In this document: positions 3,454-15,571 of the stretch, in pieces | Numbering within the stretch: the stretch's first letter is position 1 | Layout: the number at the start of each line of letters is the position of its first letter | Origin: a virus | Reading direction: 5' to 3' (one strand) | UHGV virus genome: UHGV-0073665 | Length of the DNA stretch: 22,092 nt | Translations under genes and position numbers: made by a program | The notes under the pieces: model-generated | Told to the model about the DNA's origin: nothing | Database searches by the model: none | The model's input: the letters and a program-made list of their open reading frames with translations, nothing else

Positions 3454-3487
3454 GCTCTTTAACTTCGATGATGCGCTGACAAAGCGC
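3454..3487 (+). promoter_or_regulatory. nutL: nutL: boxA-like GCTCTTTAA plus boxB hairpin GCGCTGACAAAGCGC (P22 type)
   Basis: Sits in the N leader. BoxB is a 5-bp stem with GACAA-type loop, matching the P22 boxB-left sequence as I recall it. Confidence 0.75.
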
Positions 3488-3605
3488 GAACAGATACCAA
3501 ACGAGATGGGTTTGGGGTGATGTGAATTGCAGCAGTAACGACAGCAACCAGAAGATCAGCATCTGGCGCATCACCACCAAAGCCATTTCACATGAGGAAA
3601 ACATC

Positions 3606-3914
3606 ATGACGGTAATCGTGTACGGAAAATCAACATTTGCAGGAAATGCCAAAACTCGCCGTCATGAGCGGCGCAGAAAGCTGGCCATCGAGCGTGATTC
3701 CATCTGCAACATCATCGATTCGATCTTCGGCACAGACAGTGAGGAACCTGTTCAGGAAGACCCGAGAAAGCGGTTAAGCCTTTCTGAAAAAGCAATATCA
3801 CTCGGAAGCCTTCGCTGCAAGAAAGTAGATGAATGCAGTGGAAGTGTTTGCCTGCCAAACGTAGCTATTTACGCGGCAGGCTACCGGAAATCAAAACAAC
3901 TGACGGCGAGATGA
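3606..3914 (+). CDS. N: N-type antitermination protein (P22 gene 24-like), start at internal ATG 3606
   Basis: Arginine-rich motif GNAKTRRHERRRKLAIERD matches the P22 N boxB-binding peptide from memory. GAGGAAA lies 6 nt upstream of ATG 3606. The track ORF from 3522 is a 5' over-extension into the leader. Confidence 0.85.
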   Translation: MTVIVYGKSTFAGNAKTRRHERRRKLAIERDSICNIIDSIFGTDSEEPVQEDPRKRLSLSEKAISLGSLRCKKVDECSGSVCLPNVAIYAAGYRKSKQLTAR

Positions 3915-9697: not shown

Positions 9698-9971
9698 CCT
9701 GCAACTTGCCGTTAAAGGTGAATACTTCGATGCCATGATTCGCGGAGAGAAAACGGAAGAGTATCGCCTGTGTAATGACTACTGGAATAAGCGAATTATG
9801 TTCCGCGAGTATGACCGCCTGATTATCACAAAGGGATATCCGAAGCGCGACGATTCCAGCCGCAGAATTGACGTCCCGTATGACGGATATGAAATCAAGA
9901 CAATCACACATCCCCACTTCGGTGATAAACCGGTAAAGGTGTTCGCGATAAAGGTGAATATTGATGGCTAA
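9690..9971 (+). CDS. Hypothetical protein, possibly ASCH/PUA-like (93 aa, GTG start)
   Basis: AAGGAGG lies 6 nt upstream of GTG 9690. N-terminal pattern KGEYFDAMIRGEKTEEYR resembles ASCH-domain proteins; this is tentative. Confidence 0.45.
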   Translation: MANLQLAVKGEYFDAMIRGEKTEEYRLCNDYWNKRIMFREYDRLIITKGYPKRDDSSRRIDVPYDGYEIKTITHPHFGDKPVKVFAIKVNIDG

Positions 9972-10302
9972 ATCAGCAGCAGAGCGCAAAGCCGCTCAGA
10001 GAGCCAGACAAGCTGCATCTGGTGTGCGTAAACTGGAGATTGTGCTTGATGCTCAGGAAATTGAAATGCTGGAGCGTAACTGTGCCACGCGTCGCCCCGG
10101 GCGTGCGCCTTACGAATTTGGTGAGTATATTGCGTTACTTATCCGCCAGGATGATGCTCGCGTGCACGGGCGTATAAAATCGATCAGCAGAAAACGTTGC
10201 GGTAAGTGCGGCGAGAGAGTTCCTGTGAATTCATGCCCGTGTAATGGTGACTCGCAATGCTGGGTGACCAAAGGCTGGCATGAAACGAAATTAATATTGT
10301 GA
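9964..10302 (+). CDS. Hypothetical protein with C-terminal Cys-rich (zinc-ribbon-like) segment (112 aa)
   Basis: AAGGTGA lies 6 nt upstream of ATG 9964. C-terminus has CGKCG...CPCNGDSQCW. Last gene before the terminase; stop codon lies inside the 16-bp palindromic motif. Confidence 0.5.
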   Translation: MAKSAAERKAAQRARQAASGVRKLEIVLDAQEIEMLERNCATRRPGRAPYEFGEYIALLIRQDDARVHGRIKSISRKRCGKCGERVPVNSCPCNGDSQCWVTKGWHETKLIL

Positions 10303-10311
10303 CATGTCACG
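10296..10311. repeat. 16-bp motif ATTGTGACATGTCACG (core perfect palindrome GTGACATGTCAC), copy 1, immediately upstream of TerS
   Basis: An identical 16-mer recurs at 12513..12528, just after TerL. Confidence 0.7.
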
Positions 10312-10323
10312 AGTGGGTTATGC

Positions 10324-11016
10324 ATGATGAATTTGATGGTTTTGAATACTGCCGCCAACTATGGCGGCTTTATTTTGCATGGTACTATTACCACAACGGT
10401 AACTATTACCACGGTGGTTATGATGCCTGCTGAACCTAAAGCCTATAAACGCAAATCAACGCAATTTAAGCCACTAACAGCAATGCAGGAGGCTTATTGC
10501 CAGTCATACATCAAAACGCCTGAAAACCAGACTCAGGCAGCGATTAACGCAGGATTCTCCCCAAATACAGCGGCAGTTAAAGCCAGTCTCATGATGCGCG
10601 ATGAACGCATTCAAAAACGGATTGCCGAGCTGATGGAAGAGCGCAACAAACGAATGCGCGTCAGTGCTGATTACGTTCTCATGCGCCTGGTGGAGATCGA
10701 CCAGATGGACGTGATCGACATCCTCAACGACGATGGGAGCCTTAAGCCAATCCGCGAGTGGCCGAAAATCTGGCGCACTACGCTTAGTGGCTTTGATCTG
10801 TCATCGACCATCATGAACATGAACGAGGATTCGATAGAGACAATCCTCAAAAAAATTAAATGGCCTGACAAGGTGAAGAACCTCGAACTGATTGGTAAGC
10901 ACGTCGACGTCAACGCATTCAAAGAACGCCTGGATGTTAATGTGAATGTGACAATTGCTGATCGCATAGCGGCAGCCAGGAAGAGACTGAAAGAACGCCA
11001 GGATGGCAATCAGTGA
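10324..11016 (+). CDS. terS: Terminase small subunit (alternative start ATG 10420)
   Basis: Directly precedes and overlaps TerL. Region ...KAYKRKSTQFKPLTAMQEAYCQSYIKTPENQTQAAINAGFSPNTAAVKA... is typical of the HTH DNA-binding part of small terminases. The Thr/Ile-rich N-terminal extension from 10324 is odd, so the start is uncertain. Confidence 0.65.
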   Translation: MMNLMVLNTAANYGGFILHGTITTTVTITTVVMMPAEPKAYKRKSTQFKPLTAMQEAYCQSYIKTPENQTQAAINAGFSPNTAAVKASLMMRDERIQKRIAELMEERNKRMRVSADYVLMRLVEIDQMDVIDILNDDGSLKPIREWPKIWRTTLSGFDLSSTIMNMNEDSIETILKKIKWPDKVKNLELIGKHVDVNAFKERLDVNVNVTIADRIAAARKRLKERQDGNQ

Positions 11017-12488
11017 CAGATACAGCGTTATCTCCTGAAGAGCAGTTAATCGAGGATATTGCAGGGTTCACTCACGATCCGCTTGGCTATGCCCTCTATG
11101 CGTTCCCGTGGGGGGAAGAGGGTACTGAACTGGCACATGCCACCGGTCCACGTCAGTGGCAGGCCGATGCGTTCCGAGAGATACGTGATCACCTGCAGAA
11201 TCCAGAGACGCGATATCAGCCGCTTATGCTGGCACGTGCTTCTGGTCACGGTATTGGTAAATCCGCATTCATCTCAATGCTGATCAACTGGGGCATGTCC
11301 ACTTGCGAGGATTGTAAGGTCGTGGTGACCGCCAACACCGACAACCAGCTACGAACGAAGACCTGGCCGGAAATTATCAAGTGGTCAAACCTTGCTATCA
11401 CGAAAGACTGGTTTACCTGTACCGCTACCGCGATGTACAGCAATGACCCTGGGCACGACAAGCGGTGGCGAGCTGACGCAATCCCCTGGTCTGAGCACAA
11501 CACTGAGGCATTCGCCGGACTACACAACGAGCGTAAACGCATCATCGTGGTATTTGATGAAGCGTCGAACATTGCGGATCTGGTGTGGGAAGTTGCCGAG
11601 GGTGCGCTAACGGACGAAGACACTGAGATTATCTGGGTGGCTTTCGGAAACCCTACACGTAACACCGGGCGTTTCCGTGAATGTTTCCGCAAATACAAAC
11701 ACCGCTGGAAAACTGCGCAGATTGACAGCAGGACGGTGGAAGGCACCAACAAACAGCAGTTGCAGAAATGGGTTGATGACTATGGGGAAGATAGCGACTT
11801 CGTTAAAATCCGTGTGCGTGGCATATTCCCTGATGCATCTGAATTGCAGTTTATCCCTACCGGTCTTACTGACGAGGCAATGAAACGGGTGGTAACCGCT
11901 GCGCAGGTGGCACATGCTCCGGTGATAATCGGTGTTGACCCGGCATATTCAGGCGTTGATGACGCGGTGATATACCTGCGGCAGGGGCTACACAGTAAGG
12001 TGCTGTGGACTGGCAACAAGACTACCGACGATCTGATTATGGCGAAGCGTATCGCTGACTTTGAAGACCAGTATCAGGCTGACGCGGTGTTCATCGACTT
12101 CGGTTACGGAACCGGTTTGAAGTCAATCGGTGACGGCTGGGGTCGTACATGGCAACTTGTTCCGTTCGGTGGCGCGTCTACTGACCCGCAGATGCTCAAC
12201 AAGCGTGGGGAGATGTTCAACTCATGCAAGACATGGCTGAGGCTCGGCGGCATGCTGGATGACCAGGAAACAGCGGACGACCTGTCGACGGCAGAGTACA
12301 AAGTTCGCGTGGACGGTAAAATCGTTATCGAACCGAAGGAAGATATCAAAGAGCGACTTGGGCGTTCTCCTGGTAAAGGCGATGCGCTACTGCTGACGTT
12401 TGCGTTCCCTGTGTCGAAGCGTCTGCGAATTCCCGGGCAGCAGAACCAGCAAGGCAAAGCCATCACAGACTATGATCCTTTTGCATAA
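11013..12488 (+). CDS. terL: Terminase large subunit (ATPase plus nuclease), GTG start
   Basis: 491 aa. Walker A-like ARASGHGIGKS, Walker B-like IIVVFDEAS, and a C-terminal acidic nuclease-type region. Start overlaps the TerS stop. Confidence 0.88.
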   Translation: MTDTALSPEEQLIEDIAGFTHDPLGYALYAFPWGEEGTELAHATGPRQWQADAFREIRDHLQNPETRYQPLMLARASGHGIGKSAFISMLINWGMSTCEDCKVVVTANTDNQLRTKTWPEIIKWSNLAITKDWFTCTATAMYSNDPGHDKRWRADAIPWSEHNTEAFAGLHNERKRIIVVFDEASNIADLVWEVAEGALTDEDTEIIWVAFGNPTRNTGRFRECFRKYKHRWKTAQIDSRTVEGTNKQQLQKWVDDYGEDSDFVKIRVRGIFPDASELQFIPTGLTDEAMKRVVTAAQVAHAPVIIGVDPAYSGVDDAVIYLRQGLHSKVLWTGNKTTDDLIMAKRIADFEDQYQADAVFIDFGYGTGLKSIGDGWGRTWQLVPFGGASTDPQMLNKRGEMFNSCKTWLRLGGMLDDQETADDLSTAEYKVRVDGKIVIEPKEDIKERLGRSPGKGDALLLTFAFPVSKRLRIPGQQNQQGKAITDYDPFA

Positions 12489-12510
12489 AAAAGCCCGCGA
12501 ATCGGCGGGC
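12487..12510 (-). terminator. Intrinsic terminator oriented for minus-strand transcription (end of the 140-aa ORF unit)
   Basis: Hairpin GCCCGC-gaatcg-GCGGGC at 12493..12510, followed on the minus strand by TTTTTT (plus-strand AAAAAA at 12487..12492). No U-tract on the plus-strand side. Confidence 0.6.
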
Positions 12511-12512
12511 TG

Positions 12513-12528
12513 ATTGTGACATGTCACG
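12513..12528. repeat. 16-bp motif ATTGTGACATGTCACG, copy 2, immediately downstream of TerL
   Basis: Identical to copy 1 at 10296..10311. Confidence 0.7.
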
Positions 12529-12531
12529 GCG

Positions 12532-12954
12532 TTAGAAGGTTATTTTATCGAATGCGGCGTTGATTGCCTTGGCGTCCTGCTCAGCACCAACCACATCAAG
12601 TAAAGATCTTTTACTAAGCACTTCAGCCAGGCATTGTAACTTCATGTTGTATAAGTTTTCGCGCATGTAATCATCATCACTTTTTTCTTTGGCGTATACA
12701 GCGCGAGAAATATCAAACACATTGCCTTTTTCCATTTCAGTTTTCTGCGCTGAAATCCAGTCATGGCAAGTAACTCCTATTCCATGGTCATCGCTAAGCG
12801 TTAACCCGGCCAGTCCCTCACTCTGAATTACTTCGTAATGCATTTCATTACCAGCAAAAACGCCATAAAAAACGCAGTCTTCAGCCTGAACGATACGAGA
12901 ATATTTTAATGGCCATTCATTTAGATACTTAGCCAACATATCAATTGTTTTCAT
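12532..12954 (-). CDS. Hypothetical 140-aa protein on the opposite strand inside the structural module
   Basis: AAGGTGA lies 4 nt upstream of the ATG on the minus strand. Flanked by terminators. No family recognised. Confidence 0.65.
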   Translation of the reverse strand: MKTIDMLAKYLNEWPLKYSRIVQAEDCVFYGVFAGNEMHYEVIQSEGLAGLTLSDDHGIGVTCHDWISAQKTEMEKGNVFDISRAVYAKEKSDDDYMRENLYNMKLQCLAEVLSKRSLLDVVGAEQDAKAINAAFDKITF

Positions 12955-12965
12955 GATCTCACCTT

Positions 12966-12989
12966 AAAAAAATGCCCGGCGAACCGGGC
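12966..12989 (-). terminator. Intrinsic terminator or attenuator (minus strand): GCCCGG-UUCG-CCGGGC hairpin plus U7, directly abutting the RBS of the 140-aa ORF
   Basis: Plus strand shows aaaaaaa then GCCCGGcgaaCCGGGC; on the minus strand this is a hairpin followed by a U-run. Confidence 0.55.
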
Positions 12990-13065
12990 GAACTGGAAGC
13001 AATGAGTTATGCCTTCCGTGGCTGTACGGGTTTACAGCATGAAGTCATCGCAATGGCGTCCTGCT

Positions 13066-13109
13066 GTAAAAAGGGCGGTGATAGTCCTTCAAGGGAAACC
13101 ATCACCGCC
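13066..13109 (-). terminator. Probable intrinsic terminator for the tRNA transcript (minus strand)
   Basis: 9-bp stem GGCGGTGAT/ATCACCGCC at 13074..13109, followed on the minus strand by CTTTTT. Lies ~44 nt downstream of the tRNA 3' end. Confidence 0.5.
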
Positions 13110-13152: not shown

Positions 13153-13229
13153 TGGCGTGGCATGCAGGATTCGAACCTGCGACCAACCGCTTAGAAGGCG
13201 GTTGCTCTGTCCAACTGAGCTAATGCCAC
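13153..13229 (-). tRNA. tRNA-Arg (anticodon UCU), 77 nt with encoded CCA
   Basis: Reverse complement is GTGGCATTAGCTCAGTTGGACAGAGCAACCGCCTTCTAAGCGGTTGGTCGCAGGTTCGAATCCTGCATGCCACGCCA. Folds by hand into a cloverleaf: 7-bp acceptor stem, D-stem GCTC/GAGC, anticodon stem ACCGC/GCGGT with loop CTTCTAA, T-arm GCAGG-TTCGAAT-CCTGC. Confidence 0.9.
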
Positions 13230-13656
13230 AACGCTGAGAGCACTTAGCCTGTTAAGGCGCCACACTTTGTCGCGGCTCCATAAATGCTCTCATCGTTGTA
13301 CCCTCGTCTCTTCCGAGGCGTCACACCGAATCGCCGGGATGGTGAATCCCCGTGCGCGGAATAAAACCGCTCGACTTGCACATTCCGGCTACCTGGTTCG
13401 TTTGCCCGAGCAAGGGAGGGTGCCCCTTAAACGTATCCAGACCGCTATCGGCGCATGTGCCATACGCCGTACTGCTCAAAATAAAAGCTCACTCCACCTG
13501 TTTAATTTAACGACAAGCCAGTCAGGTTAGTAACCAGAATGAGCCCTTTGGTTACCTGAAAGGTAATAATTAACGCGTTAAATGTCAACCTTCTACGATA
13601 AATAAATCATATGTGGTTAAATTGGTAATAATTTAATTGCGTACGGAGTCATTGAT

Positions 13657-13877: not shown

Positions 13878-15571
13878 ATGGCGGAAACAACTAAAGAGCG
13901 ATTGAACAAACAGTTCGCACAACTTGAAAGCGAGCGTCAGTCGTTCGAGCCGCACTGGCGCGAGTTGAGTGATTACATCAACCCGCGTGGTTCCCGCTTT
14001 CTGACTTCTGAAGTCAACCGTAACGATCGACGCAATACACGCATTATTGATTCGACCGGGACTATGGCGGCGCGCACTCTCGCCAGCGGCATGATGTCAG
14101 GCATCACAAGCCCTGCGCGTCCGTGGTTTCGCCTGGCTACGCCAGATCCTGAAATGATGGATTATGGTCCTGTTAAGTTGTGGCTCGAGGCGGTGCAGAA
14201 CCGCATGAACGATATGTTCAATAAGTCGAATCTCTACCAGTCTCTTCCGCAGTTATACGGAAGCCTCGGCACATACAGCACTGGTGCAATGGCGGTGCTG
14301 GAGGATGACGAGGAATACCAGAACCCGGTGGATCTGCTGTTTGAAGAACTGGCAAAAAAGAAGCCCAACTCCTTTGCCGGGCGGCAGTACAAACTTTACA
14401 AGCTGGCCGCAGGCAAAACCGCAAAATCAATCCTCATTTCTTGCGGTGCGGGCTAAATAACGTCAGCGAATCCGTAAAAAGCATGTGGGAAAGCGGCACC
14501 TACGAGAAGTGGATTGAAGTGATGCATTCGGTTTACCCGAACATTGACCGCGATACATCGAAGCTGGATAGCAAGAACAAGCCATTCAAATCGGTTTATT
14601 ACGAGGTTGGTGGCGATAACGACAAGTTGTTGCGTGAGTCCGGATTCGATGAGTTTCCAATTATGGCTCCGCGCTGGGAAGTTAACGGCGAAGATGTTTA
14701 TGGATCATCATGCCCGGGTATGCTGGCGCTTGGACCTGTTAAGGCATTGCAGCTTCTCCAGAAGCGCAAGTCGCAGTTGATTGATAAAGCCACCAATCCG
14801 CCGATGGTTGCTCCGACTTCCCTCAAGAATCAGCGTGCCTCCCTTCTTCCTGGCGACATCACGTATATCGATCAGATTACTGGTCAGGATGGTTTCAGGC
14901 CTGCTTATCTGGTTAACCCCAGTACAGCAGATTTGGTGGCAGACATTCAGGACACTCGTCAAATCATTAACAGCGCCTACTTTGTCGATCTGTTCATGAT
15001 GTTGCAGAACATCAATACCCGCTCGATGCCTGTTGAAGCGGTGATCGAAATGAAAGAAGAAAAACTTCTGATGTTGGGGCCGGTTCTGGAGCGTCTGAAC
15101 GACGAATGTCTTAATCCTCTCATTGACCGCTCTTTCTCGATGATGGTGCGTAAAAACATGCTGCCGCCACCGCCAGACGTGATGGAAGGTATGCCCCTGA
15201 AGGTCGAATACATTTCCGTCATGGCTCAGGCGCAGAAGTCTATCGGCCTGTCCAGTCTGGCGTCCACGGTTAACTTCATTGGTCAACTTGCGCAAGCGAA
15301 ACCAGAAGCTCTCGACAAACTCAACGTTGATCAGGCGATCGATGCATTCGCTGATATGTCCGGAGTGTCTCCAACCGTCATTGTTCCGCAGGAACAGGTT
15401 GAGCAGGCTCGCCAGCAACGGGCACAGCAGCAACAGCAGCAACAAATGATGGCGATGGGGATGGCGGCGGCACAGGGTGCCAAGACGCTAAGCGAAGCTA
15501 AAACTTCGGATCCGAGTGTTTTGTCAGCTATGGCGAATGCAGTTAGTGGTCAGGGTGGGCAATCACAATGA
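13878..15571 (+). CDS. Portal protein (T7 gp8-like podovirus connector), reading frame interrupted: ORFs 13878..14456 and 14441..15571
   Basis: N-terminal and Q-rich C-terminal regions (...QQRAQQQQQQQMMAMGMAAAQG...) resemble T7 gp8 from memory. The second frame is open from 14345. The A6 run at 14354..14359 (A_AAA_AAG in the zero frame) lies in the overlap zone. Confidence 0.75.

Follow-up and report, generated by a model that had tools for sequence, protein, structure and literature searches.

How is a gene expressed when its ribosome-binding site (RBS) begins at the point where a transcription terminator ends? The question is raised by a 22,092-nucleotide (nt) stretch of the virus genome UHGV-0073665 (hereafter the window), in which a 140-amino-acid (aa) open reading frame (ORF), ORF140, lies on the minus strand directly behind a hairpin and U-tract that we call T2. 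We lean towards an answer in which T2 is a terminator that ends a leader RNA and tRNA transcript and is at the same time the edge of a slot for exchangeable cargo genes, and in which ORF140 would be expressed from transcripts that start at a conserved promoter some 600 nt further upstream, P_slot, and leak through both T2 and the terminator before it, T1. Passive leakage through the two terminators is the best-supported mechanism; the leak itself is what we infer.

The window comes from an epsilon15/phiV10-like podophage (genus Uetakevirus) of temperate lifestyle, with phages PAS61, HEMP4 and phiV10 as its closest matches, and the locus is 100% identical in prophages of E. coli IHE3034 and APEC O18. 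The unit that holds T2 fills the gap between the large terminase gene (terL; 11013-12488, plus strand) and a 68-aa gene followed by the portal gene (13657 onward, plus strand), and it runs on the minus strand, antisense to the late operon. Read downward from 13600, its order is promoter, leader, tRNA-Arg, T1, spacer, T2, RBS, ORF140, palindrome and T3:

13560-13588, minus: P_slot, a predicted sigma-70 promoter with -35 TTGACA (13588-13583), a 17-nt spacer and -10 TACCTT (13565-13560)
13552-13566: putative operator palindrome TTACCTTTCAGGTAA, overlapping the -10 and start site of P_slot
13230-13552, minus: structured non-coding leader RNA of ~320 nt
13153-13229, minus: tRNA-Arg, anticodon UCU (ARAGORN; Rfam RF00005, 73.3 bits)
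13068-13109, minus: T1, a 14-bp hairpin, GGCGGTGATGGTTT...GGACTATCACCGCC, then CTTTTT (terminator scan)
12990-13067, minus: T1-T2 spacer of 78 nt, with no promoter signal
12966-12989, minus: T2, with stem GCCCGG (12989-12984), loop TTCG (12983-12980), stem CCGGGC (12979-12974), A (12973) and T7 (12972-12966)
12955-12965, minus: Shine-Dalgarno (SD) sequence AAGGTGA (12965-12959) and a 4-nt spacer GATC, abutting the U-tract
12532-12954, minus: ORF140, 140 aa, ATG at 12954-12952, in phrog_4846, a family of unknown function
12516-12527: 12-bp palindrome GTGACATGTCAC, the downstream slot boundary
12487-12511, minus: T3, AGCCCGC-CGATTC-GCGGGCT plus TTTTT (terminator scan; a putative terminator in the phiV10 record)

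The terminator and the gene behind it

The initial annotation had placed the hairpin, A plus U7, AAGGUGA and the ATG in immediate succession, and the minus strand reads exactly so, with no gaps and with 0 nt between U-tract and SD. In the terminator scan T2 has six G-C pairs out of six and a 4-nt loop; RNA folding gives the hairpin -12.7 kcal/mol, and it forms independently inside a 213-nt context. Under strict criteria (an all-G/C stem of at least 6 bp, a loop of 3-8 nt, and at least seven T within 2 nt), T2 is the only terminator on either strand of the window, and none of 300 dinucleotide-preserving shuffles yields one. The reverse complement of T2 lacks a T-run, which makes it a terminator on the minus strand only. 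T1 and T3 likewise carry their T-runs on the minus strand alone in the scan, and plus-strand late transcription would thus meet none of the three.

As a control for circularity, loci were re-collected with a motif from the spacer after T1, making no reference to T2, which gave 177 loci (a scan of genome contigs with the spacer motif gave one locus only). A hairpin followed by a run of 5-10 U stands at the T2 position in 176 of them, and the run is U7 in 161. In the alignment of 112 distinct haplotypes, canonical pairs account for 99.2% of stem cells, and two of the six pairs are compensated by double changes (GCCCAC/GTGGGC), the diversity being small and the covariation coming from few events; loop variants include TTCGT and an inverted CGAA. 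By sequence, structure and conservation, we regard T2 as a genuine minus-strand intrinsic terminator, and one that would be expected to terminate in vivo. The stems of the neighboring terminators covary as well. The lower stem of T1 is invariant, 5 of its 14 pairs show compensatory double changes among the 112 haplotypes, and its distal stems differ by lineage, while the T3 stem alternates between AGCCCGC/GCGGGCT and, in phiV10-type loci, AGCCAGC/GCTGGCT.

An in-frame TAA lies four codons upstream of the ATG at 12954, so this ATG is the first possible start of ORF140. Its homologs fall into 107 clusters, all of them from enterobacterial prophages, and are intact in more than 100; among distinct 140-codon alleles, the pairwise ratio of nonsynonymous to synonymous substitution rates (dN/dS) is 0.24 at the median and 0.31 at most. 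ORF140 is thus a functional gene under purifying selection, and transcripts must cross T2. The protein has no match in Pfam or PADLOC, and its AlphaFold model is of low confidence, with a predicted local distance difference test score (pLDDT) of 61.

It had also been claimed that no promoter could fit between the terminator and the RBS. This is borne out: the gap is 0 nt, and from the T1 tail to the RBS the best sigma-70 score is 5.2 bits, the 40th percentile of random sequence, while a simple promoter scan found none there. A promoter inside or beside the hairpin was considered and set aside, as there is no -35 and the score is low. So was a leaderless start from TAAGGT, since the distance from SD to ATG is different in phiV10 and between cargos.

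The spacer between the terminators is itself unevenly conserved. Its first ~40 nt (13067-13028) are highly conserved in the conservation profile, more so than the T1 stem, and the remainder is variable; within these 40 nt there is neither a promoter signal nor a supported helix. An ACAGCA/UGCUGU helix in the spacer was rejected as a structure because its variants are uncompensated. The spacer measures 78 nt in most loci and 45 nt in PAS61-type loci. These loci (3575-3585 in PAS61 itself, L001) carry a 33-nt deletion relative to window positions 13022-12990, which places T2 45 nt after T1, and despite the deletion they keep the hairpin, the RBS (there AAAGTGA) and the ORF. We also note a near-palindrome, GCCATTGCGATGAC, at 13057-13044 in the conserved 40 nt, which is a perfect CATCGCGATG in other lineages.

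A slot for exchangeable cargo and its promoter

Comparison with relatives changes what the junction of terminator and RBS appears to be. In phiV10 the same T2, U7 and AAGGTGAGATCA are followed by a wholly different ORF, PhiV10p03, of the N4 gp49/Sf6 gp66 family, and homology with the window returns right after the cargo stop codon, at CCGTGACATGTCACAA. The exact 31-mer of T2, U7 and AAGGTGA occurs in at least 120 IMG/VR contigs, and the ORFs behind it belong to at least 10 unrelated families with the same AAGGTGA or a good SD at the same place. They include PF13876, a Tad2-like anti-Thoeris domain (PF11195), an HNH endonuclease, a VG64-type lipoprotein and several unknowns. After the stop codon, the palindrome GTGACATGTCAC and T3 recur in 8 of 10 cargo families. 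Because unrelated cargos stand behind a constant T2, this terminator and its U-tract mark the unchanging upstream limit of a cargo slot and are not a device of ORF140. The initial annotation was thus right that a terminator lies directly against the RBS of the 140-aa ORF, but not in treating this as a property of that ORF, as hairpin and RBS are a boundary that all cargos share.

The slot lies between terL and portal in all loci examined, and distant ORF140 homologs from Enterobacter, Klebsiella and Hafnia all sit in it. It is present, at least partly, in 1084 of 5426 complete E. coli genomes, about a fifth, and occurs also in prophages of Klebsiella, Enterobacter, Salmonella, Citrobacter and Hafnia. 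Slots hold one to four cargo genes, linked by a TGAGGTAAnnCATG junction, and empty or near-empty slots (L085, L172, L189, L150) have a palindrome variant (GTGACACGTCAC or GTGATACGTCAC) 3-45 nt after T2 and no cargo ORF. Cargo is presumably exchanged by homologous recombination in the conserved flanks.

Two kinds of slot can be told apart by what follows T2. In type A slots, about 83% of the total and including the window, the SD comes straight after the U-tract and the cargo is promoterless. In type B slots, about 14%, a sigma-70 promoter comes straight after the U-tract (for example GTGACT-17-TATACT or ATGACC-17-TATAAT) with a TACC-N5-GGTA palindrome between its -35 and -10, followed by a 5' untranslated region (UTR), an SD and a larger gene, mostly for a membrane/coiled-coil protein of phrog_4780. 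Several annotated terminators of phiV10 have an operator site ~10-80 bp downstream. As a layout of terminator, operator/promoter and gene is common in phiV10, type B represents the usual phage layout, and type A is this layout without its promoter. A fresh promoter placed after the U-tract suggests that T2 does block transcription from upstream.

Where, then, do type A transcripts start? It had been deduced that expression needs read-through or a promoter upstream of the hairpin, and such a promoter was found in P_slot (13588-13560). Nothing else in the unit scores as high on the position weight matrix: its 12.5 bits rank at the 99.7th percentile when set against the best scores from random 126-nt segments of the window. 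The pattern CGTAG-N5-TTGACn-N17-TACCTTnnnGGTAA (-10 TACCTT) is kept in 37 of 39 lineage clusters, while the early part of the spacer and the downstream sequence vary. With P_slot upstream of the hairpin, T2 lies inside the transcript and ORF140 needs read-through. In Hafnia L192, where leader, tRNA, T1 and T2 are all missing, a protein-coding cargo operon comes ~60 nt after P_slot, and its ORF140-like (F2-type) gene has kept TTATTTTTAAGGTGA in front of it but not the G/C hairpin. Because P_slot directly precedes the cargo operon in L192, we read it as the candidate promoter of the cargo strand, and the leader, tRNA, T1, spacer and T2 as a non-coding module that would have been interposed in E. 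coli, Klebsiella and Enterobacter lineages.

The palindrome over the -10 of P_slot is one of a set. TACC-N5-GGTA is found twice in the window, where 0.08 would be expected. The IHE3034 prophage (L196) has 13 copies and phiV10 (L197) has 10, against 0.56 expected in phiV10, and in these two genomes it is always intergenic. These sites flank p40, an epsilon15-gp38-like repressor gene, and also stand before replication, integrase and antirepressor units, at terS (the small-terminase gene) and at P_slot. The palindrome was rejected as a plus-strand promoter element, since a conserved -35 at 17 nt exists on the minus strand only; it is probably an operator bound by a p40-type prophage repressor. 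If so, P_slot is an early, repressor-controlled promoter in native Uetakeviruses. More broadly, ATTACC-N5-GGTAAT sites form a genome-wide putative operator set in Uetakeviruses, ahead of most early units; in the window such sites are at 13552-13566, 10388-10402 and 10406-10420, only the P_slot and terS copies being kept. The 22-kb window holds no p40 or p41 homologs, and because it also has a P22-type immunity region, the operator of P_slot looks orphaned in this mosaic phage, as judged from the visible 22 kb. Conditional control, if there is any, would be visible at the promoter, as a putative Uetakevirus operator, and not at the terminator.

Between P_slot and the terminators lies the leader RNA, which is also found in other loci (L190 1654-1990; L191 1889-2215). 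Among 21 diverse lineages it has 40 consensus pairs, 97.7% of them canonical and 12 with compensatory types, and its G-U pairs can form on the minus strand alone. The conserved blocks read CGGCGUAUGGCACAUGCGCCG, GGUAGCCGGAAUGUGCAAGCC and ACCUCGGAAGAGACGAGG. The leader has no match in Rfam and contains no credible ORF; part of it, together with the tRNA, is 83% identical to lambdoid phages cdtI and 2H10.

The tRNA position varies. In 31 of 39 lineage clusters ARAGORN calls no tRNA there, and a longer element with tRNA-like ends takes its place (L190 2140-2300; L194 2280-2400), which begins with GTGGTGAATGCGCAGGCTGATGCGC... and ends in ...GCCGG-loop-CCGGCCACCACAACCCA, in L194 with a GGTTCGAATCC T-loop. 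It shares its 5' flank, GTGCTCTnnnCGTTGTGG, with the tRNA loci and is called by neither ARAGORN nor Rfam. In the minimum free energy fold from the tRNA trailer to the ORF start, the conserved trailer sequence AUCACGCCU (13150-13141) pairs with the SD region AGGUGAGAU (12964-12955) ~190 nt away. According to this model, read-through transcripts might have their RBS masked by the pairing, which has a competitor in a local trailer hairpin, AUCACG/CGUGAU.

Routes past the terminators

The reading that we favor can be set out as follows. T2 would form the 3' end of a conserved non-coding module, comprising leader RNA, tRNA-Arg, trailer hairpin, T1 and spacer, that is transcribed from P_slot antisense to the late operon. 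Its U-tract would serve as the fixed upstream edge of the slot, and everything from there to GTGACATGTCAC and T3 would be swapped between phages. An ORF140-type cargo would bring an RBS only and no promoter, and its translation would draw on the smaller share of P_slot transcripts that get past T1 as well as T2, the two terminators in tandem setting a low ratio of protein to tRNA and leader. T1, T2 and T3 together would keep antisense transcription out of the terminase genes, and the operator at P_slot would be the site of conditional control. In the mosaic phage P_slot may be unrepressed, in which case the terminators would be the only brake.

Several observations sit uneasily with passive leakage. 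The searchable literature holds no transcript data for the Uetakevirus group, and both termination and read-through are thus predictions. Two good terminators in series may leave very little read-through, which would fit poorly with a Tad2-like sponge cargo that is expected to need abundant early expression. Promoterless slots show no visible weakening of T2, which mostly has U7 and an unchanged stem there, and both T2 and the first 40 nt of the spacer are closer to invariant than a simple terminator would require. U-runs differ modestly: those of six or fewer occur only in type A slots, and those of eight or more are enriched in type B (p=0.02, over 72 non-independent haplotypes).

Outside the slot, the window has elements that bear on a regulated alternative:

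3522-3914, plus: N-like gene
3454-3492, plus: nutL, canonical P22-type, with boxA GCTCTTTAA and boxB GCGCTGACAAAGCGC (recovered by the nut-search script)
1113-1075, minus: nutR, canonical P22-type, with CGCTCTTTA and ACCGCCGACAACGCGGT (found by eye)
9961-10302: small Cys-rich regulator, phrog_536, conserved and in a Q-like position before the terminator at terS
10299-10310: second exact copy of GTGACATGTCAC, after the phrog_536 regulator

The initial annotation proposed attenuation at the hairpin, or antitermination by an N- or Q-type factor, and neither proposal gained support. For attenuation, no antiterminator structure competing with T2 was found, and T2 folds independently in its context; the 33 nt just upstream of it are dispensable, as PAS61-type loci tolerate their loss; and no Rfam leader, riboswitch or other cis-regulatory family matches over T2, the only leader-type hit being a weak Trp_leader at T3 (24 bits, cutoff 41 bits). 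Antitermination in a wider sense deserves more thought. Here the leader RNA in cis, like put of HK022, or a phage protein (N or the phrog_536 protein) would make polymerases from P_slot terminator-resistant, only polymerases that are foreign or unmodified would be halted at T1 and T2, and cargo expression would be strong whenever the factor is present. We think regulated antitermination unlikely, but it has points in its favor. A covarying leader of ~320 nt without a known family sits exactly between promoter and terminators, the window encodes an N-like protein with canonical nutL and nutR, a conserved regulator occupies a Q-like position, and a counter-defence cargo such as the Tad2-like protein suggests a need for strong early expression. 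Yet the P_slot transcript (13570-12480, minus strand) contains no boxA within one mismatch and no boxB-like hairpin in a search that recovered nutL as its control. The N gene is absent from the IHE3034 prophage, whose slot is identical, and from phiV10, both of which have a different early region, so N is not a constant partner of the slot. No Q is annotated in phiV10 or IHE3034, the phrog_536 protein matches nothing in Pfam, the Protein Data Bank (PDB) or PADLOC, and the GTGACATGTCAC palindrome adjoining its gene is absent near P_slot. The fresh promoter after T2 in type B slots also argues against routine override of T2. Two boxA-like sequences were examined and dismissed: the TGCTCTTTC that recurs in lineages without a tRNA proved to be a conserved flank on the 5' side of tRNA and tRNA-like genes, and a third CGCTCTTTA, at 13900-13892, lies upstream of P_slot in the portal gene without a boxB and was treated as chance.

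Within antitermination, we rank the form mediated by the leader in cis as the main rival to leakage, and below it. The leader would be a new cis-acting element that makes P_slot polymerases resistant to T1 and T2, and T2 a gate passable only by P_slot transcription. The leader is, however, far larger than put, and nothing ties it to RNA polymerase; this version is slightly less probable again than antitermination taken as a whole. Were it true, the slot would be an early, repressor-controlled counter-defence platform in which exchangeable anti-defence proteins are combined with a tRNA, or an RNA like one, of the phage. Two further alternatives dispense with read-through from P_slot as the source of cargo expression. 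The hairpin could lie in the 5' UTR of an mRNA that begins at a non-canonical promoter or processing site in the T1-T2 spacer, acting chiefly as a 5' stabilizer or standardized translation-initiation context, with termination secondary. Translation is known to be enhanced, through ribosomal protein S1, by U-rich tracts that precede an SD; the F2-type cargo of Hafnia L192, which keeps TTATTTTTAAGGTGA without a hairpin, indicates that a U-run and SD can stand alone as a translation-initiation region, and the first 40 nt after T1 are strongly conserved. Against this stand the low sigma-70 score in the interval and the blank simple scan, the loss of 33 nt of spacer in PAS61-type loci that keep the ORF, the failure of a leaderless TAAGGT start given the varying distance from SD to ATG, and the fact that a G/C hairpin with U7 will terminate whatever else it does; we regard this alternative as distinctly improbable. 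Alternatively, T2 could serve the upstream RNA only, as the 3' end of a tRNA trailer or small-RNA-like transcript, and the ORF behind it would be essentially unexpressed baggage. The piece from T1 through the spacer to T2 is indeed shaped like a terminator-ended small RNA of ~100 nt whose hairpin and U7 would suit Hfq binding, functional 3' trailers of tRNAs are known (3'ETS-leuZ), and empty or near-empty slots exist. Baggage is nevertheless hard to reconcile with ORF140 and its relatives being intact in more than 100 clusters at a dN/dS of 0.24, with at least 10 cargo families keeping a good SD at the same place, and with recognizable functional families among the cargo, and we give this account very little credence.

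Related systems and the surrounding genome

If passive leakage is the answer, the closest mechanistic parallels are internal attenuating terminators such as the rplL-rpoB attenuator and T1 between rpsU and dnaG in E. coli, where partial read-through sets a ratio with no dedicated regulator. As in those operons, the terminator in the slot stands between an upstream product needed in abundance and a gene expressed at a lower level. In contrast to them, what is made upstream is an RNA, leader plus tRNA; two terminators stand in tandem, the second of which touches the SD, and the read-through is predicted.

In its genomic setting, the slot resembles a moron that lost, or never had, its own promoter. 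Morons are reportedly accessory transcription units between conserved late genes of lambdoid phages such as HK97 and HK022 (Juhala et al. 2000; Cumby et al. 2012; also cited in 10.1101/2024.10.15.618418). The slot is similar in that a variable accessory gene lies between essential late genes (terL and portal), bounded by terminators and swapped, or present and absent, among relatives, and type B slots have the classic form of promoter, gene and terminator. The downstream terminator (T3), the insertion between conserved genes and the variable presence among relatives are thus all found in the window, while a promoter of the cargo's own is absent from it and found in type B loci only. The slot is also unlike morons in that the window and 83% of loci have promoterless cargo directly behind a terminator, that the unit is antisense to the late operon, that its boundaries (U-tract and 12-bp palindrome) are nucleotide-exact, and that a tRNA/leader module shares the promoter.

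Other comparisons are instructive in part. Counter-defence and anti-CRISPR loci of Mu-like Pseudomonas phages are controlled by an Aca-repressed promoter, and the slot shares with them a conserved promoter with an inverted-repeat operator and variable small accessory genes at a fixed position in the structural region, one of its cargos being Tad2-like. Its operator, in contrast, belongs to a genome-wide regulon flanking a repressor gene, with no in-locus Aca, and an RNA module and two terminators are interposed. Arrays of one to four promoterless ORFs behind a fixed promoter, with a 3' palindrome and with empty sites, recall integron cassettes, but the slot has no integrase or attC-like folded site and its junctions are short (TGAGGTAAnnCATG; GTGACATGTCAC); homologous recombination in the flanks offers the simplest explanation of its exchange, as opposed to an integron mechanism. 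In the late region of Stx and other lambdoid phages the order is PR'-tR'-(ileZ-argN-argO tRNAs)-stx, with read-through by Q (PMC8065619). The slot likewise has a phage tRNA-Arg gene and accessory genes on a terminator-bearing transcript, and its leader/tRNA part resembles lambdoid cdtI and 2H10; unlike the Stx region, it has no identified Q gene or qut-like promoter architecture, its promoter bears an operator, and its terminators come after the tRNA and not before it.

Accessory hotspots subdivided by terminators are a known general pattern in phages (10.1101/2024.10.15.618418). We found neither the slot nor its leader RNA described in the literature, nor its promoter, its operator or its boundaries that are exact to the nucleotide, and the reporter-phage, ZX5 and Kapi1 publications and the hotspot survey contain nothing on the locus. 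As an intrinsic terminator T2 is nothing out of the ordinary; its position is unusual but can be explained. The junction of terminator and RBS is of use as a precise landmark, since whatever follows the U-tract is cargo, and the slot thereby provides a position-based list of candidate counter-defence or lysogenic-conversion genes, one of which has an anti-Thoeris fold and most of which are uncharacterized. It also offers a naturally occurring example of a gene that has no promoter of its own, stands behind two terminators and is maintained by purifying selection, in which terminator leak and hidden antitermination could be told apart with simple reporters.

The genome around the slot is a mosaic of a P22/lambdoid early region (CI, Cro, CII-like, SieB-like, Erf, SSB and Abc2, with a CI-type repressor) joined to a Uetakevirus late region. 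The palindrome that closes the slot is not confined to it. About 0.003 exact copies of GTGACATGTCAC would be expected by chance in 22 kb, an estimate from window length; of its copies in phiV10, at 2262 and 19493, one lies in the slot and the other closes the late operon, behind the final late gene, and each is beside a terminator. Every copy, in the window and in phiV10 alike, has a stop codon on one side and an intrinsic terminator on the other.

Two neighboring genes call for comment. The portal gene of the window consists of two overlapping ORFs, 13878-14456 (192 aa) and 14441-15571 (376 aa), while in IHE3034 and phiV10 it is a single gene of 1680 nt; the split reflects either a frameshift mutation or a sequencing error. 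The small-terminase ORF in its annotated or longest form (from 10324) matches its PHROG only from residue 35, and the true start of terS is probably near 10421. The 118 nt before it (window 10303-10420) resemble a control region, with the palindrome, a hairpin and then two operator-like sites that reach the terS SD:

10351-10376: terS-region hairpin GCCGCC-AACTAT-GGCGGC plus TTTATTTT

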